64,000 nt of DNA. It comes from Candidatus Portnoybacteria bacterium (lineage in GTDB: Bacteria > Patescibacteriota > Minisyncoccia > Portnoybacterales > GWB1-42-6). Shown piece after piece: positions 19,421 through 32,120 of this stretch. Position 1 is the stretch's first letter. Every line of letters starts with the position of its first letter. The translations under genes were made by a program, and so were the position numbers. The notes below the pieces were generated by a model. The model worked only from the letters and a program-made list of their open reading frames with translations. It made no database searches and was not told where the DNA came from. The stretch is from contig JACQXN010000006.1 in assembly GCA_016208745.1 (NCBI GenBank), positions 67 through 64,066 on the forward strand. Direction: 5' to 3'.

Positions 19421-19468
19421 TTTAAGGTGTTTTAAAAAATTAGAGAATTAAAAATAGTTAATGGTTAG

Positions 19469-19560
19469 GGACCCTACTAAATTACTAATCATTACCAATT
19501 TTACGAATATTAAATTTTTATTAGTAATATTAGTAAAAATTAGTAATTTAGTAGGGTCCT
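19469..19560. repeat. 22-bp-arm inverted repeat in the 23S-5S spacer (gggaccctactaaattactaat ... attagtaatttagtagggtccc); probable processing stem
   Basis: Perfect inverted repeat. Confidence 0.5.
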
Positions 19561-20520
19561 GGCAAAAATTTAGACAGATGGATGATTTATTAGTACTCCT
19601 TGGCTTAACGCATTACTGCGCTTACACCTAGAGCCTATCAACCTTGTAATCTTCAAGGAATCTACGATACCTAATCTTGGGGTCTGCTTCGCGCTTATAT
19701 GCTTTCAGCGCTTATCAGATCCATACATAGCTACTCAGCAGTGCACCGGGCGGTGCAGCTGATACACCAGAGGTATGTTCTTCTCGGTCCTCTCGTACTA
19801 GAGAAGACTCCCCTCAAGTATCCACGCCTGCAGCAGATAGAGACCAACCTGTCTCACGACGGTTTGAACCCAGCTCACGTACCTCTTTAATTGGCGAACA
19901 GCCAAACCCTTGGGGCCTTCTTCAGTCCCAGGATGAGATGAGCCGACATCGAGGTGCCGAACAGTATCGTCGATATGGACTCTTGGATACTACCAGCCTG
20001 TTATCCCCGGAGTAGCTTTTAGCCGATGATCTTCCACCTTCCTATGAAGTATGGTCGGTTCACTAAGTTCCGCTTTCGCGACTGCGCGACATGTCCGTCT
20101 TGCAGTAAAGCCAGCTTATGCCTTTACGCGTCAGGGCCGATTTCCATCCGGCCCAAGCTGACCTTGATAAACGCCTCCGTTACTCTTTTGGAGGCTAGCG
20201 CCCCACTAAAACTGCCCACCAGGCACTGTTCCCGTCCCGTTTTGCGAGACAGGTTAGAACAAAGTTTTTTAAAGATGGGTGTTTCATTGGCGGATCCATG
20301 CAGGCCGAAACCTACACTTCAAATCCTACCCACTACGCTACGCATTAAAAAACAAGGCTCAATACCAAGCTGCAGTAAAGCTTCCGGGGTCTTTTCGTCT
20401 AGCTGCAGGTACCCGGCATCTTTACCGGAATTGCATTTTCACCGAGCTCCTCGTTGAGACAGTCCCCAAGTCGTTACGCTTTTCATGCGCGTCAGAACTT
20501 ACCTGACAAGGAATTTCGCT

Positions 20521-21373
20521 CAAATGTGTTATTCTGCCCTCGACTTTAGTCAGGGCAACTCTATATATCGCTATATAGTTCGGACTATATCTTCTCCGTG
20601 ATTTGCGGAGTTTGGCGTATAGTCTCTGGGGATTCTAAAAACTTGGATGGTTTGCACCGGTTAATTTTTTCCATTAAACCGGCGATCTTTTTCATTCCTC
20701 TGTACTTAAAATGTCTTTGAGAAATCATCATTTTGACGATCTTCGCGAACACTTTAAAATCTTTTTCTTTGGCGGTTTTGAGATTATTCTTTTCAAAAAA
20801 TGGAATAATCTTTGCATTCAAATCCGAAATGGATCTAACGCAATAACGAAAAAGGGGTTCTTTATGGTTGTCGTGGCGGCGGTTGATAAATATTTTTCCG
20901 CACTCAAAGAAATTTTGAATCATTTTTAATGAATTCAAACTTTTTTCTCCTTGAGTAACTACAAACTCCGGAAAAACTTGCCAACCAAATTTTGTTCTCG
21001 CGTTACGAATCATCGTAACGGAAAAACATCCTTCACCGTCAACATAACCAACTATCCATCCGATTGTTTTTAGCCTTTCCTGCGGATTGTCTGGCGCCTC
21101 TTCCTTAAAGGGCACACTGGTAGATTTTTTACTTGGCATAATGTTTCATTTGTTATGGTAACATTATACCATAGTATCTCCAGATACTCCAGATTTTCCC
21201 GTCCCGCAAGCCTTCCCTTATTGTGAAATTGTCACAATAACGTGACTTACGGATTCCCGAAATTGCATTTTTCCTTCGCAACCATACGGCTGCGGGATTG
21301 CGATTTGTTTCCAATCGCTTCGATCTTGGACAAATCGGGAACATATAGCCAAATTTTACTAAAGCAGTTTCCT
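20521..21373 (-). mobile_element. group I intron in the 23S gene at the position equivalent to E. coli U1931 (5' exon ends ..AAAGT, the intron ends in G, the 3' exon begins AGCGAAATTCC)
   Basis: Exon junction deduced by comparison with the conserved helix 69-71 sequence; the intron carries a homing-endonuclease ORF. Confidence 0.75.
20585..21139 (-). CDS. LAGLIDADG homing endonuclease (single-motif type) encoded in the intron
   Basis: GWIVGYVDGEGCF motif in a 184-aa ORF that lies within the 23S gene. Confidence 0.85.
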   Translation of the reverse strand: MPSKKSTSVPFKEEAPDNPQERLKTIGWIVGYVDGEGCFSVTMIRNARTKFGWQVFPEFVVTQGEKSLNSLKMIQNFFECGKIFINRRHDNHKEPLFRYCVRSISDLNAKIIPFFEKNNLKTAKEKDFKVFAKIVKMMISQRHFKYRGMKKIAGLMEKINRCKPSKFLESPETIRQTPQITEKI

Positions 21374-23583
21374 ACTTTAACACGATTATAGTTATCGCGG
21401 ACGTTCACTGGCGCTTAGCACAGTGAGCCTAGACGCACATCACCACATTCAGGCTAAACTTATAGTTTTACTCTTTATTGATTGGCGAAATTGCCGTCAT
21501 ATTAAAGAGCTTGCTTAATCTTTGAAGATTAAAAAGAAAAACTACAAATCTGCACTGAACGCAGTAAAGTGCGCCCAGACCCCCATGTTTAACGTTCCAG
21601 CACTGGTCAAGCGTCAGCCCCTATACTTCCTCTTGCGAGTTTGCAGGGACCTGTGTTTTTGGTAAACAGTCGCTTGGGGTCTTTAGCTGCGGCCCAATCG
21701 CATCGCGCTATGCACGACGCATAAATTTAAAATGTAAAAATCGAAAGTCAAAATTTAAGTGTCGCTTTGTGACAAATTATAATAAATTCGCCGCAGGCGA
21801 ATACCAAAATTTTACATTTTGCCCGCCCCGCTTCGCTTGGCGAGGCCGGGGATATTTTAATTTTGCATTTAGCGTCACACGCAGTGTGATGCGATCAGGC
21901 AGGTCATATTGCGAACTTACGACACGTTGTTTTGCCGAGTTCCTTAACGAGGACTCACTCGTTCGCCTGAGGCTACTCGCCTCGCCCACCTGTGTCGGTT
22001 TTCAGTACGGTTCCCTTATTTTTGACTCTAGAAGTTTTTCTTGGCAGCTCCTTCGTCCGAATTACCCCGCCTTCTAAGCCCGTCACCAAGATCTATAGAA
22101 CAAACTATTTTTTACCTCAAAAAAATAATGTCCTATAATCTGGTCATGAGCATAGAGGGCGGGGCTTTTCTCAATTTCGGAAATTATTCTGCCGGATTTG
22201 CCTGACAGACATTCCAAAACCAAGAATGATAATCCAATAAATCACTCAGACTTTTAAACTGCGTCACTCCGTTGAAAAAATAAGGAAGTGCAGGAATATT
22301 AACCTGCTGTCCATTATCCGAGCATCTCTGCTCTAGACTTAGGACCGACTAACCCTTGGATGATAATCATTGCCAAGGAAACCTTAGGCTTGCGGCGGTC
22401 CGGTCTTTCACCGGACTTGTGGTTACTTATTCCAACATTCTCTCTTCCTAACGCTCCAGCGAACCTCACGATTCGCCTTCACAGCAGTTAGAAATGCTCC
22501 CCTACCGCCTCGCGCTCCGCACGAAGAAATCCTAAATTAAAAATTCTAAATCCGAAACAAATTCCAAATTAAAATTTCCAAATCATAAAACGAAAATTTA
22601 ATTTAATTCTTGAATTTTGATCATTTGAATTTGTTTAGAGTTTGGGATTTAGTGCTAGAATTTCCTTGTGCGAAGCACAAGACCCATATCTTCGGTACTA
22701 AGCTTAGCCCCGATAAATCTTCGGTGCAAAATCTCTAGATTAGTGAGCTGTTACGCACTCTTTAAAGGATGGCTGCCTCTAAGCCAACCTCCTAACTGTT
22801 AGAGAAACTTCACCGCCTTGTTGACACTTAGCTTAGTTTAGGGACCTTAGATGATGATCTGGGCTGTTTCCCTTTTGACTATGGAGCTTCGCCCCCACAG
22901 TCTGACTCTGATGATAAAAATCTCGGCATTCGGAGTTTGATTAGGTCCGGTAGGAAAAATCCATCCAAACCCATTCAGTGCTCTACCTCCAAGACACAAA
23001 CATCAGGCTAGCCCAAAAGCTATTTCGGGGAGAACCAGCTATTACCAAGCTCGATTAGCTTTTCACTTCTTACCACAGCTCATCCCCCAGTGTTGCACGG
23101 CTGGTGGGTTCGGGCCTCCCCCTGATTTTACTCAGGGTTCACCCTGGCCATGGCAAGCTCGCCTTGGCTTCGGGTCTTAAATGTGCTGCATATTCACAGA
23201 TCGCAAATAGCTCGTCAGGCGCAGCCCGATAAGCGATTCGCAATAAGTGAAAGTCGCGCTATTAACACTTGGTTTCCCTATATCTCCGTCCCGAAGGACT
23301 TAGAAAAAGCAACACATATAAACTCGTTGGATCGTTCTGCAAAAAGCACACGGTCACCCACACGCATCTCGCTACTCGAGATGCTAAATTAAAAGTTTAA
23401 AGTTAAAATTTAAAAGTTATTGAGTGAAAAATTTTGAGACAAAATTTTTCACGAATTCCTAAATTTTTAACTTTTCATTTTTCATTTTTAACTTAGCGCA
23501 TCTTGCCCAGCAAGATGCGCGCAGGCTCCCATTCATTGTAAGTATATGGTTTCAGGGACTATTTCATCGCCCTCATCGGGCTG

Positions 23584-23622
<39 letters not shown>

Positions 23623-23918
23623 GATATTGAGTATTTAGCCTTGGCACAATAGTCGTGCCGGATTCCGACAAGGTAGTCTTGGCCTCGCCGTACTTAAGAA
23701 CAATAACTAGGAGCATAAAACCGTTTTCGCTTACGGGGCTATTACCCTCTTTGGCACCGGTTTTCCATCCGGTTTCTGCTAACGAAGCCTTATAATTTGA
23801 TCTCCCTCTGGAACCTAATCAACAAGTCCAAGAAGTTTACCCTGAGCTTGTCGAAGGGCTCCAGAACGTTATTACCTTACAACACCCATACACCGCACAT
23901 CGCTGAGCTCTGTGCGTG

Positions 23919-24056
23919 AAATGTCTAATTTCTAATTATTCTAATTTCTAAGCAAATCCCAAATTTTTAAATATCCAATAATAAAAAGTAGTATTTTGTC
24001 ATTGGAAATTGGAAATTCATTAGATTAATTAGACTAATTAGGTCAATTAGAAATTT
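23919..24056. repeat. 138-bp AT-rich palindromic element (arms AATTTCTAATT...ACCTAATT / AATTAGGT..AATTAGAAATT) inserted at a 23S domain I helix tip
   Basis: Same family as 24154-24247, 50463-50597 and 51001-51138; complementary flanking rRNA sequences close the helix. Confidence 0.6.
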
Positions 24057-24153
24057 CGCACGAAACGCAGTGAAGTGCGGTAGATGGGTTTAGGCTCTTC
24101 CCTTTTCGCTCGCCGCTACTGGGGGAATGAGCGGTCTCGCAATCGCTCGCCGC

Positions 24154-24247
24154 AATGTCTAATTTCTAATCCCTAATTTATCTAATCCAGTCCCGCAGGG
24201 CGGGACATTTTTAGAATAATTAGGTTAATTACGAATAATTAGAAATT
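24154..24247. repeat. 94-bp AT-rich palindromic element of the same family inside 23S, with a central gtcccgc/gcgggac hairpin
   Basis: Arm sequences shared with the other family members. The flanking rRNA motif GCGGCGAGCGA is duplicated across the element, consistent with a closing helix. Confidence 0.6.
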
Positions 24248-24327
24248 GCGCGTATCGAACGATAGTGAGATCGCCTTATTTTCTTTTCCTCCGCTTACTA
24301 GAATGTTTTACTTCAGCGGGTTAACTC

Positions 24328-24618
24328 CTGCTCAGATTTTTGGAGGGGATCATATTTATAGACGATCCCCCTAATAAATTAACATGCCCTAAGGCCTGTA
24401 TCATTGTATGTGACCAGGGCCACAAATGTCTCGCCAACGATAGCCAATGCGGTCGAAAGAACTTCGGGTTGTTCTTTTTTTTCCCATTGATTAATCTCTT
24501 CTCTTAATCGTACCATTGCACCCAAAGCATTCTCTGGCGGAACTCTTTCCACAACAAATTCCATTACCATACTATGTCCTCCTTTTTCAGAATTATTTAC
24601 TCCAAAAATCTGAGCAGG
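24328..24618 (-). other. intervening sequence of about 290 nt near the 23S 5' end, closed by a 19-bp inverted repeat (CCTGCTCAGATTTTTGGAG / CTCCAAAAATCTGAGCAGG) and containing a protein-coding ORF
   Basis: The insertion lies between conserved 23S segments (..GGGGAAACCC.. and ..GAAGTAAAACAT..), and the stem is a perfect 19 bp. Confidence 0.65.
24379..24570 (-). CDS. 63-aa hypothetical protein encoded inside the 23S intervening sequence (MVMEFVVERVPPENALGAMVRLREEINQWEKKEQPEVLSTALAIVGETFVALVTYNDTGLRAC)
   Basis: AAAGGAGG lies 7 nt upstream of the ATG. The longer track ORF 24379..24669 would read through conserved rRNA. Confidence 0.5.
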   Translation of the reverse strand: MVMEFVVERVPPENALGAMVRLREEINQWEKKEQPEVLSTALAIVGETFVALVTYNDTGLRAC

Positions 24619-24948
24619 TATACCGATTTTATCGGTATGGGTTTCCCCATTCGGATATCCCCGGATCAAAGCTTGCTAGACAGCTCCCCGAGGCTTAACG
24701 CAGTCACGCCACGTCCTTCATCGCCTCAATATCCCTAGGCATCCACCATACACCCTTAGCCATCTGTCTAAATTTTTGCCCCCAAGCCAAAGCTTGGGAT
24801 TGCCACGCTAAGCGCGGCCTAGATGACTAATAATTAAGTAACCATTAACGTTATCTGATTCTCTAATTTCACCCCGTCCCACAATACATTTGTGGCGGGG
24901 TTCTTTTATACCTGCTATATTCAATTTTCAAGTTGCTATCATTTTTCA

Positions 24949-27633: not shown

Positions 27634-28058
27634 TAAGCATTCTTATTCTTTGACTCTTTTTTTATAACTATCCAGTGATAAAGATATAAAGGCAGACCAA
27701 CCAAAATCATCGCTAAATTAAACGAAGCATCTCTTTGCCTTCTGGAGGTTACTGGATCAACATTGCTTCTTTGCTCTTTCCATTGATTATATGAAACCAG
27801 CCATTGTTGGATGTTAGCTTTTTCTGATTCACTTAAAGTGGTTTGCGCGCCAGTGCTTAAGTCTTGAAGTTTCTCAACCGCAATAGGCGCCGAAAACGGC
27901 TCTTTATACATAACTCTTTCTTCGTCTTCTGCTTTGGTAAAAACAAAAGCTTTAAGTCCCATATCAATAAACCTGATGCCACCGATTGTCAAAAGCACCA
28001 AGCCCAAAAGGGCGAAAGTATAAAGATAAAATGTTCTGATTAATGAATGTTTGTCCAT
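27633..28058 (-). CDS. hypothetical membrane protein (two TM helices)
   Basis: ORF with hydrophobic N- and C-terminal helices. Confidence 0.55.
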   Translation of the reverse strand: MDKHSLIRTFYLYTFALLGLVLLTIGGIRFIDMGLKAFVFTKAEDEERVMYKEPFSAPIAVEKLQDLSTGAQTTLSESEKANIQQWLVSYNQWKEQRSNVDPVTSRRQRDASFNLAMILVGLPLYLYHWIVIKKESKNKNA

Positions 28059-28065
28059 GATATTT

Positions 28066-28170
28066 AACTTCTTAGTTATTCCCTCCTCCCCTCAAATGAG
28101 GGGAGGATTAAGGTGGGGTGATAAAATTGATTTTCAACACCTCCTCTTTAATTCTCCTCCTCAACTGAGG
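28066..28170 (-). promoter_or_regulatory. two similar stem-loops whose stems are CCUCC / GGAGG (CCTCCCCTC-aaat-GAGGGGAGG and CTCCTCCTC-aact-GAGGAGGAG) in the leader of 27633..28058
   Basis: GC-rich hairpins in an AT-rich genome; the stems consist of Shine-Dalgarno and anti-Shine-Dalgarno-like sequence. Confidence 0.4.
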
Positions 28171-28226
28171 AGGAGAGGATAAATAAAAAAAATTTATTAA
28201 CTCGAAACAATTAATAGAGTAGTAAT

Positions 28227-28445
28227 TTATTTAATCTCCACTATCTTATTCCTACTAGATGCCCCTGAAGTAATTCTTATCCTTGAGCGCGCGACAGAAA
28301 AATATTGCGCCAATGCTTTAATTATTGCTTCATTGGCTCGACCTTTTTCTGGCGGCTCGCAAACTGCCACCACAAAATGAGTTTCCGATATTTTCTCAAT
28401 AAATTCCTTTCTAGCCCGGGGTTTTGCCTGAACAAATATTTTCAT
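28227..28445 (-). CDS. DUF167/YggU-family protein
   Basis: A 72-aa protein with the pattern ..PEKGRANEAIIKALAQYF.V..S.I.I.SG.SSR.K. Confidence 0.6.
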   Translation of the reverse strand: MKIFVQAKPRARKEFIEKISETHFVVAVCEPPEKGRANEAIIKALAQYFSVARSRIRITSGASSRNKIVEIK

Positions 28446-28539
28446 CTTATTATGGAGCGCCTTCCTTAATTTTATATTAATTCTACCCCTTCCTATATTC
28501 TGGCGTCAAACAAAAAAATAATAGTAAATTAACATTTGT

Positions 28540-28583
28540 AAATTTGCCAGTTAGTATGCTATAGCATACTAACTGGCAAATTT
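28540..28583. promoter_or_regulatory. 44-bp perfect palindrome with core AGTATGCTATAGCATACT, downstream of 28614..29225
   Basis: Perfect 22-bp arms; the core is shared with 29194-29226. Confidence 0.5.
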
Positions 28584-28613
28584 TTCTTTCTAGTCTTTCG
28601 TTCTAAGTAAAGC

Positions 28614-29225
28614 CTATAAATCAAAAATGTTTTTTAAATACAAATCATTATCTATCTTCTCTATTACGCCATAAAGTATATGGGGTTTTATTTGATAAAA
28701 TTCCGCGATAAAGTTAATTTCGTCTTCGCATTCAAACGGATGCACAAAGACACTTTTCTGTAATTCGTGGAATCCTATCTTTTTTAATCTGAACCTGAAA
28801 GCATCCCGCGCCATTTTTTGTTCCTCCGGAATGTCAAAAATTACAATCCTCCATTTTCTATCCCAAGCCTGCTTCTTAATTCTCATATCTTCTAATTGGT
28901 ATTTTAACGCCTTTGTTTTTCCATTGTCAGCCAAAACCATTGAAATAACGCCATCTCTATCCGTTTTTATATTAACTAACTTTGACCGATATAGTTCTCT
29001 TATATCTTGTTTTATTCTATCTTCTTTTATTTGTTTCCACCCTTTTCCAATTGCTTTTACTATATGAAATTGCCGTTCCGGGGAACGGTTAAGACAAAGA
29101 GCAGCGCCGCCCATCAATATAAGTAAAATTTTCTTTTTGTTGGTATTTAAATCACTCACTTTATTTATTTTTATTATACGCCATATCAATTTTGGAGTAA
29201 ATATGCTATAGCATAGTAACTCCAA
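28614..29225 (-). CDS. protein with a C-terminal Cas2/VapD-like domain (IVIFDIPEEQKMARDAFRFRLKKIGFHELQKSVFV) and an N-terminal possible winged-helix domain; PaaX-like architecture; flanked by related palindromes
   Basis: The C-terminal pattern resembles the Cas2/VapD fold signature (hh.YDh...RR.kh.k.L..yG.R.Q.SVF). Palindromes sit at the start and 30 nt after the stop. Confidence 0.4.
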   Translation of the reverse strand: MELLCYSIFTPKLIWRIIKINKVSDLNTNKKKILLILMGGAALCLNRSPERQFHIVKAIGKGWKQIKEDRIKQDIRELYRSKLVNIKTDRDGVISMVLADNGKTKALKYQLEDMRIKKQAWDRKWRIVIFDIPEEQKMARDAFRFRLKKIGFHELQKSVFVHPFECEDEINFIAEFYQIKPHILYGVIEKIDNDLYLKNIFDL

Positions 29226-29226
29226 A
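29194..29226. promoter_or_regulatory. palindrome ttggagtaaATATGCTATAGCATAgtaactccaa overlapping the start of 28614..29225; candidate operator
   Basis: Core TATGCTATAGCATA is shared with 28540-28583. Confidence 0.45.
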
Positions 29227-29290
29227 AAACACAGAAGAGACTCTCATTGTATGTTATATTTGATCTAATCATGGGTAATATTGTAAATAC

Positions 29291-29319
29291 TTGACACGTG
29301 GTTTAGTTTTTTATATCAT
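29291..29319 (+). promoter_or_regulatory. candidate promoter TTGACA-N17-TATCAT for the GNAT gene
   Basis: Canonical hexamers about 50 nt upstream of AAGGAGGG and the ATG at 29369. Confidence 0.5.
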
Positions 29320-29368
29320 AATTCATCGCACAAATCTGTCATTTAATAATCAAATAAGGAGGGATATT

Positions 29369-29920
29369 ATGCTGGTAGGAAAAAGCGTTACTTTGAGACC
29401 GTTGGGAATAGAAGATATCGACTTTTTTCTTAAATGGTTCAACAATCCAGAAATAACAAAGTTTCTACTTATGTATCTGCCGATGACGAAGCTATCCGAA
29501 GAAAAATGGCTGCGGGAAGTGGCAAAAAAGCAAGAACCAGTTTTCACAATACTTGTAAATACTCCGAGCGAAAGACCCCCAATCGGCGCTTGTGGACTCC
29601 ACAAGATTGATCAAAAAGACAGAAGGGCTGAATTCGGAATCGTACTCGGAGAAAAGAATGCATGGGGCTGTGGTTTCGCCCGAGAGGCAGGCGAGCTTTT
29701 GATAAGCTATGGTTTCAATTCGCTTAATCTTCATAAGATAGAATCAGCTTACATAGCAACAAACATTAGAAGCATGAGACTTCATAACAAATTAGGGTTT
29801 TTGGAGGAAGGAAGGAAAAGGAACCACACATTTAAAGAGGGCCAATATCGCGATATGATTATTTTCGGCCTTCTTCGGGAAGAGTGGGAACAAGCGAAAG
29901 AAAGAAAAAAGAAAGAATAA
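29369..29920 (+). CDS. GNAT-family N-acetyltransferase (RimJ/RimL-like)
   Basis: Acetyl-CoA binding region ..GLHKIDQKDRRAEFGIVLGEKNAWGCGFAREA..; ribosome-binding site AAGGAGGG. The track start at 29291 has no ribosome-binding site. Confidence 0.8.
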   Translation: MLVGKSVTLRPLGIEDIDFFLKWFNNPEITKFLLMYLPMTKLSEEKWLREVAKKQEPVFTILVNTPSERPPIGACGLHKIDQKDRRAEFGIVLGEKNAWGCGFAREAGELLISYGFNSLNLHKIESAYIATNIRSMRLHNKLGFLEEGRKRNHTFKEGQYRDMIIFGLLREEWEQAKERKKKE

Positions 29921-30010
29921 ACAGACAGACCAGCGCTACAATGTGTCGGTTTTTTAAACCAAAAGAGACGTCTACGCGTCTCTTTTAAAATTGCATTTGA
30001 AACTCTTGCC

Positions 30011-31069
30011 TTACAGCGCCACAATCTCTTCCCAAGGCAACCCCTCTTTGCCAAAATGTCCATAAGCAGCGGTTTGGCGGTAAATCGGCCGGCGGAGATT
30101 CAATCGTTCAATAATCGCCTGCGGCCGGAAATCAAAATTCTTATTCACTATTTCATCAATGCTCTCCCCTTTTTCATTAATCGCCTCAACCATTAAAGGT
30201 TCAACGCGGCCGATGGCATAAGCCACTGAAACTAAACATTTTTTAGCTAGGCCATTAGCCACAATATTTTTGGCGGCAAAACGAGCCATATAAGCGGCTG
30301 ATCGATCAACTTTTGTCGGATCTTTCCCAGAAAAAGCGCCGCCGCCATGCGGAATTAAACCGCCATAAGTATCAACCATAATCTTTCTGCCGGTTAAGCC
30401 GGTGTCAGCCTCAAACCCGCCCTGCACGAATTTGCCGGTTGGATTAACTAATATTTCGGCGCCATTGTAATCTTCTTCGTCAAAAGCCGATTTAATTACT
30501 TTTTCAATAATTTCTCTTTTTATATCATCTTGCGAAACCGAATCGCTATGCTGACAGCTAACTAGAATTTTTTCTGTGCCGTGGCTGTTAATAGTTACCT
30601 GCGATTTACCATCTGGAAAAAGCCAGGTGGCTTGGCCACTTCTCCTTAATTTTTCTAAACCTTGCGCCAGTTTATGCGCCATAACAACTCCTTTGGGCAA
30701 AAATTGAGAAGTTTCATCTGTCGCATAACCATACATAATGCCTTGATCTCCGGCGCCACCCGTATCAACTCCCTGCGCAATGTCGGGCGATTGCTGGACA
30801 ACATTAGTAATAACTTTTAACTCGTTCTGATGGCCGATATCGCGATAAACCTGTCGGCCAAGATTGGCAAAATCAACTTGCGCGTTAGTTGTCAGCTCGC
30901 CGCAAATAACTAATATCCCGTGTCCGCCAAAACTTTCAATGGCAACTCTGCTTTTTGGGTCTTGCCTTAAACATTCGTCTAAAACAGCATCCGAAATCTG
31001 ATCGCAGATTTTATCCGGATGCCCCGAGGTAACGCTTTCAACTGTATACATCTTTGTGCTGTATGTCAT
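30011..31069 (-). CDS. metK: S-adenosylmethionine synthetase
   Basis: GHPDKICDQISDA, GAGDQGIMYGYA and GGGAFSGKDPTKVDRS motifs; the true start may be the internal MYTVESV. Confidence 0.95.
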   Translation of the reverse strand: MTYSTKMYTVESVTSGHPDKICDQISDAVLDECLRQDPKSRVAIESFGGHGILVICGELTTNAQVDFANLGRQVYRDIGHQNELKVITNVVQQSPDIAQGVDTGGAGDQGIMYGYATDETSQFLPKGVVMAHKLAQGLEKLRRSGQATWLFPDGKSQVTINSHGTEKILVSCQHSDSVSQDDIKREIIEKVIKSAFDEEDYNGAEILVNPTGKFVQGGFEADTGLTGRKIMVDTYGGLIPHGGGAFSGKDPTKVDRSAAYMARFAAKNIVANGLAKKCLVSVAYAIGRVEPLMVEAINEKGESIDEIVNKNFDFRPQAIIERLNLRRPIYRQTAAYGHFGKEGLPWEEIVAL

Positions 31070-31154
31070 ACTGGGTAGTAGAAATTTGACTATGATTTAA
31101 ATTCGGAACGCCGAATTTAAATCATAAGGTCTTTTTAGTTTTCTACAATTTAAA

Positions 31155-31292
31155 AAATCTTTCCACGCGGAAAGATTTCTCTAAAATTATCTTTCCCCCG
31201 TGGGGCTAGAGTTGGCACCTCTCCTTCAATTATTTGAAGAAGGTTGTCGGCAGGTCATAGGGCTAGTTCCCTCGCTACACTCTGTAATAATT
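31155..31292 (-). promoter_or_regulatory. SAM-I (S-box) riboswitch with an intrinsic terminator, in the metK leader
   Basis: Minus-strand sequence ..TTATTACAGAG..GCGAGGGAACTAGCCCTATGACCTGCCGACAACC..GGTGCCAACTCTAGCC..AGATAA matches the S-box consensus. It is followed by the hairpin aaatctttcc-gcgt-ggaaagattt and a T-run. Confidence 0.7.
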
Positions 31293-31299
31293 ATTTTAT

Positions 31300-31346
31300 C
31301 CCCACACCAGAACGCTACAACCATGGGCACAAACCCATGGTGTGGG
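31300..31346. repeat. hairpin repeat family member R1 (CCCCACACCAGAACGCTAC..inner hairpin..CCATGGTGTGGG) in the metK leader
   Basis: Related copies lie at 35196-35250 and 41636-41756, with compensatory stem changes. Confidence 0.55.
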
Positions 31347-31363
31347 AATTTATTTTTCTAAAA

Positions 31364-31392
31364 TATTGTTTTAAGTTTATAGAAAAAAATTT
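31364..31392 (-). promoter_or_regulatory. candidate metK promoter TTGACA-N17-TAAACT (minus strand)
   Basis: Hexamers read on the minus strand, upstream of R1 and the riboswitch. Confidence 0.4.
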
Positions 31393-31513
31393 ATTGTGTC
31401 AAAAAAATTTATCCACAATATTAATTATTTTTCTTTTCTACTATTGAAAACTTGACAAAATAGATGCGCCTGCCATAGACTAATAATCAATACTATGGTT
31501 CTTTTTTTCTTGT

Positions 31514-31661
31514 GACCGCGTAGGCTTAAATGGTAAAGCGCCCGATCGTAATCGGCCTCGTGCTGGAGGGCATTTTAGAGAAGTTCAGTTAGCGTTGACG
31601 CGTAAACTGCTAACGAAGAATCCAAAAATGCGAGATGTCGGTTCGAATCCGACCGCGGCCA
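31514..31661 (+). ncRNA. tRNA-like structured RNA gene: canonical T-arm GTCGG-TTCGAAT-CCGAC plus acceptor 3' strand and a 5' acceptor/D-arm-like start, but about 148 nt long with extra internal hairpins. It could be a tRNA with an insertion or intron, or another tRNA-like RNA.
   Basis: Candidate promoter TTGACA..TAGACT at 31452-31481. Internal hairpins include CCGAT-cgta-ATCGG, CCTC-gtgctg-GAGG and GCATTTT..AAAATGC. Two terminator hairpins follow at 31730-31757 and 31762-31783. Confidence 0.45.
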
Positions 31662-31729
31662 CACCCCCACTTTTCTAAGTGCGGGACGAAAGTTTTTCTG
31701 GTAGGCACCTGTCCGGTGCCTTTCGCAGG

Positions 31730-31783
31730 GGTCGTCTATATGACGACCTTATTATTTTAATAGGCGCCATCAGCGCCTATTTT
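31730..31783 (+). terminator. two consecutive intrinsic terminators (ggtcgtc-tatat-gacgacc + T-run; aggcgcc-atca-gcgcct + T-run)
   Basis: Hairpins followed by T-runs on the plus strand. Confidence 0.55.
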
Positions 31784-31793
31784 CAAACAAGAA

Positions 31794-32120
31794 CTATAAT
31801 TCCGTCTTAATCAGAAACAATCTCTTTTTAAATCCGCCTCGTTTTTTATTTTTTAGCTTTTGCCTATCTTCAATCCCTTTCTTCGTCAAACCGATCTCCA
31901 ATATTAGAACATCTAATAATTCCTGAATATCAACAACTTCGTTAATAATTTAATCTTTACTTTTAGCGGCGATCAGCTCTTTTGCTTCCTCAAGCACTTT
32001 TTTCTTTATTTCTCTCAAATATTCTTTCTTGCTTAAAGTCCGCCAATATGGCTTTTCTCCCGCCGCTTCAATAATTTCTAGAATTCTATCTCTGATTAAT
32101 TTATTGTATTTTTTTATCAT
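31794..32120 (-). pseudogene. MazG-like nucleotide pyrophosphohydrolase (KLIRDRILEII.. type) interrupted by an in-frame TAA at 31950-31952; the C-terminal half continues in the same frame (..EVVDIQELLDVLILEIGLTKKGIEDRQKLKNKKRGGF..)
   Basis: Manual minus-strand translation. The 56-aa N-terminal part and the 52-aa C-terminal part are separated only by the stop codon. Confidence 0.5.

Follow-up and report, generated by a model that had tools for sequence, protein, structure and literature searches.

A 148-nt tRNA-derived RNA gene with a structured variable-region insertion in a Candidatus Portnoybacteria genome

The RNA gene described here is 148 nt long and occupies positions 31514..31661 on the + strand of a 64-kb chromosomal window, the whole stretch of 64,000 nucleotides that we analysed, from a metagenome-assembled genome of Candidatus Portnoybacteria (CPR/Patescibacteria). 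The MetK protein of the window (30011-31069(-)) matches NCBI MBI4708767.1 at 100% identity, and its neighbours carry HY764_ locus tags. The flanking genes (metK, a GNAT acetyltransferase, a DUF5654 protein and an ABC transporter) are not functionally suggestive; no TROVE/Rsr or RtcB gene is present among the called neighbours, and no translated gene is called over the RNA region in the assemblies examined. The region around the RNA gene is identical in two independent Logan assemblies, which excludes an assembly artefact. Elsewhere in the window, Rfam at gathering thresholds detects a SAM riboswitch next door, 23S and 5S rRNA genes, and a tRNA-Gln whose CCA is encoded. Extension of the contig through its edge proteins, in search of other tRNAs of this genome, recovered short Logan contigs only. 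A 9-mer resembling a DnaA box (TTATCCACA, 31409-17), to which a preliminary description of the locus had drawn attention, is attributable to chance: matches with at most one mismatch number 20 against 14.4 expected, and they do not cluster. The window shows no GC-skew switch either, and a replication origin at this place was rejected.

The GenBank annotation itself hints at a gene here. From HY764_00995 (MBI4708763) to HY764_01025 (MBI4708768) there are six locus-tag steps but five protein-accession steps, and all five proteins are accounted for. Therefore, one non-protein gene should be annotated between 28058 and 31950. In that interval, the 148-nt RNA is the only place with room and the only RNA-like feature besides the riboswitch, and the NCBI pipeline gives no locus tags to riboswitches. 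By this locus-tag arithmetic we consider it quite probable that the tRNA finder of the pipeline has already called the gene.

By direct reading and RNAfold, the gene runs from an acceptor 5' strand to a discriminator A73 (RNA nt 1-148). The acceptor 5' strand GACCGCG (31514..31520) had been described as the complement of CGCGGCC (31654-31660); the two do pair, but at six of seven positions, with an A2.C71 mismatch. Pairs 3-7 have RNAfold probabilities of 0.94-0.99, and the stem could be extended outward by three further pairs, GUG/CAC. The linker of positions 8-10, UAG (31521-23), has three nucleotides where two are usual. It is followed at 31524..31539 by the D-arm already recognised in the preliminary description, GCUU-AAAUGGUA-AAGC in RNA letters and GCTT-AAATGGTA-AAGC as DNA, with A14, A15, G18G19 and A21. 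Its 4-bp stem (pair probability 0.92-0.97) and 8-nt loop are of the class I type; the next hairpin begins directly 3' of it, and nucleotide 26 is absent. At the other end of the gene, direct reading of 31637-31661 bears out the T-arm, acceptor strand and discriminator that had been reported: the T-arm GUCGG-UUCGAAU-CCGAC (31637..31653) is fully canonical, its loop motif GGTTCGAATCC occurs once in the 64 kb, and the acceptor 3' strand CGCGGCC with the discriminator A, at 31661, completes the gene (31654..31661). The next three nucleotides are CAC, so that in the absence of an encoded CCA the mature end would need post-transcriptional CCA addition. All nucleotides of the tertiary core are in place (U8, A14, A15:U48, G18G19, A21, G46, G53, T54, T55, C56, A58, C61). 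Thus the acceptor stem, the D-arm, the T-arm and the invariant and semi-invariant nucleotides, N73 included, are those of a tRNA; the deviations are A2.C71, the 3-nt linker and the missing nucleotide 26.

The middle of the gene is where it departs from a tRNA. The D-arm and the T-arm are ~97 nt apart, against the usual ~22, and the intervening sequence folds as three hairpins. H1 (31540..31556, RNA nt 27-43) is a 17-nt element at the position of the anticodon arm, as seen both in the ARAGORN drawing and by RNAfold. It is followed by a 75-nt insertion in the variable region (31557..31631), delimited by folding and by a deletion scan and made up of H2, CCUC-GUGCUG-GAGG (31556-69, RNA nt 43-56), and H3, an irregular hairpin of 62 nt and ~24 bp (31570-31631, RNA nt 57-118). 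In H3, a helix GCAUUUU/AAAAUGC encloses GUUAGC/GCUAAC, and the apical loop contains the palindrome ACGCGU. A residual variable loop, GAGAU (31632..31636), assigned as such by ARAGORN, keeps G46 and U48 in place; a Levitt pair between U48 and A15 is possible. All helices are found again by RNAfold, at pair probabilities of 0.8-0.99 for CCGAU/AUCGG in H1, CCUC/GAGG in H2 and the two nested helices of H3, which are the extra hairpins predicted in the preliminary description. The body, previously put at ~60 nt too long, in fact exceeds a class I tRNA by ~75 nt.

At 148 nt, the gene lies outside the tRNA range of ~70-95 nt, and the standard detectors pass over it. ARAGORN at its default threshold does not call it, with or without the intron option, and there is no RF00005 match at the gathering score. 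At E <= 10, the only relevant Rfam match is a partial tRNA covering the 3' half. It scores 17.7 bits where the gathering score is 29, and so falls short of the confident match to a known family that the preliminary description had named as a result that would overturn it. The same search of region 31380-31820 returned no tmRNA, YrlA, tRNA-Sec, ribozyme or intron family.

An in silico deletion scan locates the surplus RNA. Removal of nt 44-118 leaves a 73/74-nt "tRNA-Thr(cgt)" that ARAGORN calls at default settings, and removal of H3 alone leaves an 87-nt tRNA-Thr in which ARAGORN draws H2 as the variable arm. In the full scan at default settings, 376 of the 463 constructs called by ARAGORN were tRNA-Thr(cgt); all of these 376 deletions start at nt 37 or later (nearly all at nt 44 or later) and end no further than nt 125. 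Detection was restored only by deleting at least 53 nt within nt 44-123. This indicates that the surplus RNA sits in the variable region and that the native gene is missed only for its length. We therefore describe the 148-nt RNA firmly as a tRNA-derived gene with an intact acceptor, D-arm and T-arm frame and a structured insertion of 62-75 nt in its variable region. Among the candidates put forward earlier, a tRNA with an unusual insertion fits best, all of the extra RNA lying between nt 44 and 123; the insertion is not an intron of the group I or BHB type, as set out below.

The composition of the insertion points to added material. The GC content of the tRNA core (58.9%) is close to that of the tRNA-Gln of the window (59.5%), whereas H3 (40.3%) is close to the window as a whole (39.3%); H3 thus looks like genome-like sequence added to a tRNA-like core. 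Together, H2 and H3 fold with z = -2.7, and 7 of 200 shuffled sequences were equally stable. No second copy of the insertion was found in the 64-kb window, which speaks against a mobile or repeated origin, and an exact search of IMG/VR with a 27-mer from H3 gave 0 matches. A tandem duplication, suggested by 148 = 2 x 74 nt, was rejected, since comparison of the insertion with the tRNA halves and with a permuted tRNA gave nothing significant (p ~0.2-0.6). Two alternative parsings of the gene also fail. If H3 is read as the real anticodon arm and H1 plus H2 as a further insertion, ARAGORN rejects the construct or returns a 4-nt "anticodon"; a nested tRNA starting at 31554 with acceptor strand GGCCUCG appears as "tRNA-Pyl" only at -ps80 and was judged spurious.

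The tRNA-like acceptor and T-arm, and a length between those of tRNA and tmRNA, might be taken to mean that the RNA belongs to an established class: tmRNA, YrlA, tRNA-Sec or a tRNA interrupted by a group I or BHB intron. We regard this as highly improbable, since the ARAGORN, Rfam (E <= 10), BHB and tag-frame tests were all negative and the 75-nt insertion lies outside the anticodon loop. Both tmRNA and YrlA join an acceptor and T-arm mimic (in YrlA, a D-arm too) to a payload that is not tRNA. However, tmRNA measures 260-400 nt, carries a tRNA-Ala-like acceptor with G3.U70, a tag ORF and pseudoknots, and is without a genuine D-arm. Here, the ARAGORN tmRNA search was negative even at -ps80, Rfam gave no match, the third acceptor pair is C3-G70 and none of the six frames holds a plausible tag ORF, in agreement with the preliminary description. 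The 5' and 3' ends of YrlA lie at the anticodon-side stem and form the stem bound by Ro, whereas the present RNA ends at its acceptor stem; it has no YrlA match at E <= 10 and no rsr neighbourhood. Group I and BHB introns share with this gene the interruption of a tRNA by extra RNA. Group I introns of bacterial tRNAs are longer than 200 nt, sit in the anticodon loop and match RF00028, and none of this holds for an insertion of 75 nt located 3' of the anticodon arm and without an RF00028 match at E <= 10; elsewhere in the window, RF00028 does pick up an element, in the 23S gene. BHB introns, found in archaeal and eukaryotic tRNA genes, need a bulge-helix-bulge at the splice sites, with two 3-nt bulges on either side of a 4-bp helix. 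A brute-force search found eight BHB-like geometries, none of them flanking nt 43/44 and 118/119, and the splicing endonuclease that BHB introns require is not known in bacteria.

The closest parallel in architecture is the class II tRNAs (Leu, Ser, Tyr, Sec), in which an extra stem-loop likewise emerges from the variable region of an otherwise canonical cloverleaf with a canonical elbow. Known class II variable arms have ~10-25 nt and a single hairpin. Here the variable region measures 80 nt and forms two hairpins, the D-arm belongs to the class I type, the anticodon arm is non-canonical and its putative anticodon, CGU, belongs to Thr, which is never class II; we therefore rejected a class II assignment.

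The identity of the tRNA from which the gene descends depends on H1. In the register drawn by ARAGORN, H1 forms a canonical anticodon arm with pairs G27-C43, C28-G42 and C29-G41, a C30.C40 mismatch, G31.U39 and the loop AUCGUAA, which contains U33, the anticodon CGU and A37. A perfect tetraloop hairpin, CCGAU-CGUA-AUCGG, competes with it. According to RNAfold, the canonical register lies 7.8 kcal/mol above the minimum free energy structure and has a pair probability of ~0.015. When nt 27-43 were replaced by random 17-mers, ARAGORN still called a tRNA in 27-36% of cases. The call thus mostly reflects the scaffold, and the isotype is weak evidence for Thr(CGU). On the other hand, by our own estimate only ~1% of random 17-mers would combine at least 4/5 pairs with U33 and R37. 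Descent from a tRNA-Thr(CGU) is therefore plausible, though unproven, and the most likely ancestry; present-day decoding by the RNA is doubtful.

The RNA might nevertheless be a working tRNA-Thr(CGU), either because ThrRS, EF-Tu and the ribosome tolerate a giant variable arm, much as the long arms of class II tRNAs are tolerated, or because the insert is removed after transcription. Removal could proceed by an RNase III-type cut in H3, leaving a nicked two-piece tRNA held together by a stem stub and tertiary contacts, or by a cut-and-ligate route not yet known. In its favour, the tertiary core, the T-arm, the D-arm, U33, CGU, A37 and A73 are all intact, the insertion is on the solvent-exposed side of the variable loop, and the annotation pipeline apparently accepted a gene at this locus. 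ACG makes up 17% of the Thr codons in the window, so that a CGU isoacceptor would be useful. Against it, the anticodon stem, with its C30.C40 and G.U, is worse by those 7.8 kcal/mol than a tetraloop that buries U33 and A38, and the gene has the 3-nt 8-10 linker, no nucleotide 26, and neither a BHB motif nor a self-splicing intron signature. The A2.C71 mismatch falls on the 2:71 base pair, which in E. coli is a ThrRS identity element. No natural tRNA is known whose variable region comes anywhere close to 80 nt. On the favourable side again, H3, as an irregular helix of ~24 bp, is of the general kind that RNase III cuts in 23S intervening sequences (PMC11270868). Weighing these points, we hold a working tRNA to be a tentative and rather unlikely reading.

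The gene appears to have its own transcription signals. A sigma-70-like promoter is predicted at 31452..31481(+), with TTGACA at 31452-57 as the -35 element and TAGACT at 31476-81 as the -10 element, matching 10 of 12 consensus positions. The proposal of a dedicated promoter is thus plausible; the spacer, previously counted as 17 nt, is 18 nt. The promoter ends 32 nt upstream of G1, and the predicted start near 31488 would give a leader of ~25 nt. The divergent promoter of metK and its SAM riboswitch (31402->31374(-)) shares the TTGACA / TAnACT form. The window shows no enrichment of promoter-like sites (4, against 2.9 in shuffled sequences), so the argument for the promoter is one of position.

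Downstream of the gene, the preliminary description had recorded two terminators. There are in fact four hairpins, of which the last two carry U-tracts and are the predicted intrinsic terminators. The first two, CCCCCACUU-UUCU-AAGUGCGGG (31665-85) and GGCACC-UGUCC-GGUGCC (~31703-21), are on the + strand and have no proper U-tract. The first terminator, at 31728-60(+), consists of GGGGUCGUC-UAUAU-GACGACC followed by UUAUUAUUUU; the second, recognised from sequence and fold at 31762-85(+), consists of UAGGCGCC-AUCA-GCGCCUA followed by UUUU. Both have U-tracts on the + strand only. The trailer folds with z = -7.1 and the whole transcript with z = -5.8. A promoter combined with several terminators is a layout typical of stable-RNA genes, which again would suit a working tRNA-Thr(CGU).

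The same features may also be read as those of a tRNA-like non-coding RNA that has been exapted for another role. The acceptor, T- and D-arms would then serve as a handle for processing and stability, and H1-H3 would be the payload, a platform for protein binding or base pairing; alternatively, the 3' trailer would be released as a small RNA. Known precedents for tRNA-like modules in other RNAs are tmRNA, YrlA and the 3' external transcribed spacers that act as sponges. Several observations are consistent with such a role: a stable tetraloop hairpin takes the place of the anticodon arm, H2 and H3 fold better than shuffled sequences, the ACGCGU palindrome at the apex of H3 could mediate loop-loop pairing, and the trailer has two extra hairpins that are not terminators, in a transcript with the low z-scores given above. 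The RNA matches no Rfam family at E <= 10, however, none of its neighbours (metK, the GNAT acetyltransferase, DUF5654, the ABC transporter) suggests a function, and H3 has plain genomic base composition. Moreover, with no homologue found there is neither covariation nor a family to support the payload. We judge exaptation to be unlikely on this evidence.

Searches for relatives in syntenic CPR loci, GTDB representative genomes, JGI metagenomes and IMG/VR returned none. The nearest MetK homologues are 75-78% identical, and when the metK loci of these relatives were compared with a single-sequence covariance model, nothing matched besides the window RNA and an ordinary tRNA-Gln. No homologue of the DUF5654 neighbour exceeds 64% identity along most of the protein (70% in a partial alignment), and the protein collection has no close relative of the organism. 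Among GTDB representatives, the exact pattern GTAG-N4-AAATGGTA-N75-105-GGTTCGAATCC gave three chance matches, each an ordinary tRNA behind a random match; in JGI metagenomes, the exact pattern TGGTA-N10-TCGTAA-N70-100-GGTTCGAATCC gave 14 chance matches. These negatives are weak, because exact patterns built on the D-loop AAATGGTA or the loop TCGTAA together with the T-loop GGTTCGAATCC would miss diverged relatives. The lack of homologues fits a lineage-specific event, and as far as can be seen the insertion would be specific to this lineage.

The searches of IMG/VR viral contigs recovered a separate set of long genes. These resemble tRNA-Leu, measure 132-162 nt, have 7/7 acceptor pairing and contain 50-85 extra nt in mid-gene. 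Like the window RNA, they have the same D-loop and T-loop motifs, by design of the search, and are not called by default ARAGORN; unlike it, they have a class II D-arm, GGCGAAATGGTAGACGC, and their extra sequence shows no similarity to the insertion described here. By the deletion scan, the extra material begins at ~nt 30-40 in most. When inspected by eye, it is at or after the anticodon loop in at least some of them, which suggests ordinary 37/38 introns of giant-virus or jumbo-phage tRNAs.

A likeness closer to home is found in the rRNA genes. The 23S gene of this genome spans 5.2 kb against a model of 2.9 kb. It contains many insertions, several of them in domain I, and a group I element, scoring below threshold, that includes an ORF. 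According to a survey of CPR rRNA genes, short insertions that lack ORFs and intron features are numerous there and may be intervening sequences of the RNase III type (PMC11270868). The tRNA insertion is similar in being short, ORF-less and hairpin-forming, in its genome-like, AT-rich composition, in interrupting a structured RNA at a loop or junction, and in belonging to the same genome. It differs in that the rRNA insertions were described for 16S and 23S only, with 0 mentions of tRNA in the survey (PMC11270868), and it shares no sequence similarity with the 23S insertions of the window.

The reading we prefer, at roughly even probability in our assessment, is that the 148-nt RNA is a remodelled relic of a tRNA, still transcribed and processed but a poor decoder or none, a counterpart to the rRNA genes of this organism with their many insertions. 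The RNA would be transcribed from its own sigma-70-type promoter and stop at the tandem terminators. Its tRNA-like top half should guide RNase P to cut at G1 and allow 3' trimming behind A73 and addition of CCA, which would leave a stable RNA of ~151 nt with H2 and H3 projecting from the variable-loop side of the L-shape. The centre of the gene would have been remodelled by a lineage-specific insertion resembling the non-intron insertions of CPR rRNA. Given the preference of the anticodon arm for the closed tetraloop form and the A.C mismatch in the acceptor, the RNA probably does not decode efficiently, and ACG codons would be read by another tRNA-Thr.

Several observations fit poorly with such a relic. 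A decaying gene is not expected to keep the full tertiary core, a perfect T-arm, a strong promoter and a trailer of four hairpins, nor is its insertion expected to fold better than shuffled sequences (z = -2.7), and the streamlined CPR genomes have few pseudogenes. The intact core, the strong promoter and the elaborate terminators argue for continued selection and hence favour the functional alternatives. One of these is a functional tRNA-Thr(CGU) whose variable region has acquired an intervening sequence or expansion segment. Its mature form would have by far the longest arm of any known tRNA or, if an RNase III-type cut in H3 is left unligated, would be a nicked two-piece bacterial tRNA. We consider this version distinctly unlikely; if true, it would extend the phenomenon of insertions in CPR rRNA genes to a tRNA.

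The only known interruptions of bacterial tRNA genes are introns of group I, or rarely of group II, in the anticodon loop, and no variable arm longer than ~25 nt is known. A tRNA frame from a bacterium that accommodates a structured insert of ~75-80 nt in its variable region would be a new architecture, here in a lineage with rRNA genes already filled with insertions. It also exposes a blind spot of ARAGORN and Rfam, which miss the gene purely for its length. If the gene is expressed and its insert is removed or tolerated, it would provide a small and tractable substrate for the study of how CPR bacteria cope with insertions in their structural RNAs. Should the gene be a relic, it would offer a rare snapshot of the decay or exaptation of a tRNA gene in a streamlined genome.

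In the public annotation of the genome, the locus tags HY764_00995 to HY764_01025 (GenBank), covering positions 28058-31950, outnumber the protein accessions by one, and therefore one non-protein gene is annotated within this interval. The tRNA-like RNA is most likely this gene. The same interval encodes a protein with a PaaX_M domain (28614-29225, minus strand), which carries the GenBank name "CRISPR-associated endonuclease Cas2"; neither a CRISPR array nor other cas genes were seen near it.

Long tRNA-like genes were also found in IMG/VR viral contigs. The 16 viral genes (on contigs L014, L018 in two copies, L026, L030, L031, L034, L041, L042, L055, L056, L069, L079, L084, L104 and L121) are 132-162 nt long, with acceptor pairing of 7/7, a D-arm that is mostly tRNA-Leu-like (GGCGAAATGGTAGACGC) and a central part that is hypervariable. 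At its default settings, ARAGORN called none of the 16. These genes probably encode class II tRNAs with introns and belong to giant viruses or jumbo phages; their sequences are unrelated to that of the window RNA.

Two small features lie inside the window RNA itself: a 6-nt palindrome, ACGCGU, in the apical loop of H3, the 62-nt hairpin of its insertion (31597-31604, plus strand), and GGCCUCG at RNA nucleotides 41-47 (31554-31560, plus strand), which can take the place of GACCGCG opposite the acceptor 3' strand, with 6/7 pairs. Either feature may be due to chance.

Downstream, between the 3' end of the tRNA-like gene and its two real terminators, the trailer contains two stable hairpins without U-tracts (31665-31721, plus strand). 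The fold of the whole trailer is far more stable than those of shuffled sequences (z = -7.1), and the trailer could be a separate small RNA freed by 3' processing. On the upstream side, a SAM riboswitch forms the leader of metK (31293-31184, minus strand), and a TTGACA-17-TAAACT element (31402->31374, minus strand) is its likely promoter, placed back to back with that of the tRNA-like gene. A strong nested hairpin separates this putative promoter from the riboswitch (31300-31347); read on the plus strand, it is terminator-like.

The 23S rRNA gene (19570-24769, minus strand) extends over 5.2 kb, compared with 2.9 kb for the model, and its domain I carries several insertions (∼272, 148, 192 and 69 nt). 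The gene also gives a group I intron match below the threshold (20561-20732, 34.4 bits), and a 184-aa ORF (20585-21139, minus strand) overlaps this match. No 16S gene was found upstream of the 23S gene within the window. In the 23S-5S spacer (19466-19561, minus strand), the plant microRNA family MIR5070 of Rfam scores 38.7 bits, below its threshold of 100; this match is almost certainly spurious and due to a hairpin.

Across positions 1-64000, every 2-kb bin except one has a negative GC skew, and the skew shows no switch. The minus strand carries the rRNA genes, tRNA-Gln and most of the ORFs examined near the tRNA-like gene; the tRNA-like gene itself is on the plus strand. With the direction of replication that we infer, its transcription would run head-on to the replication fork.
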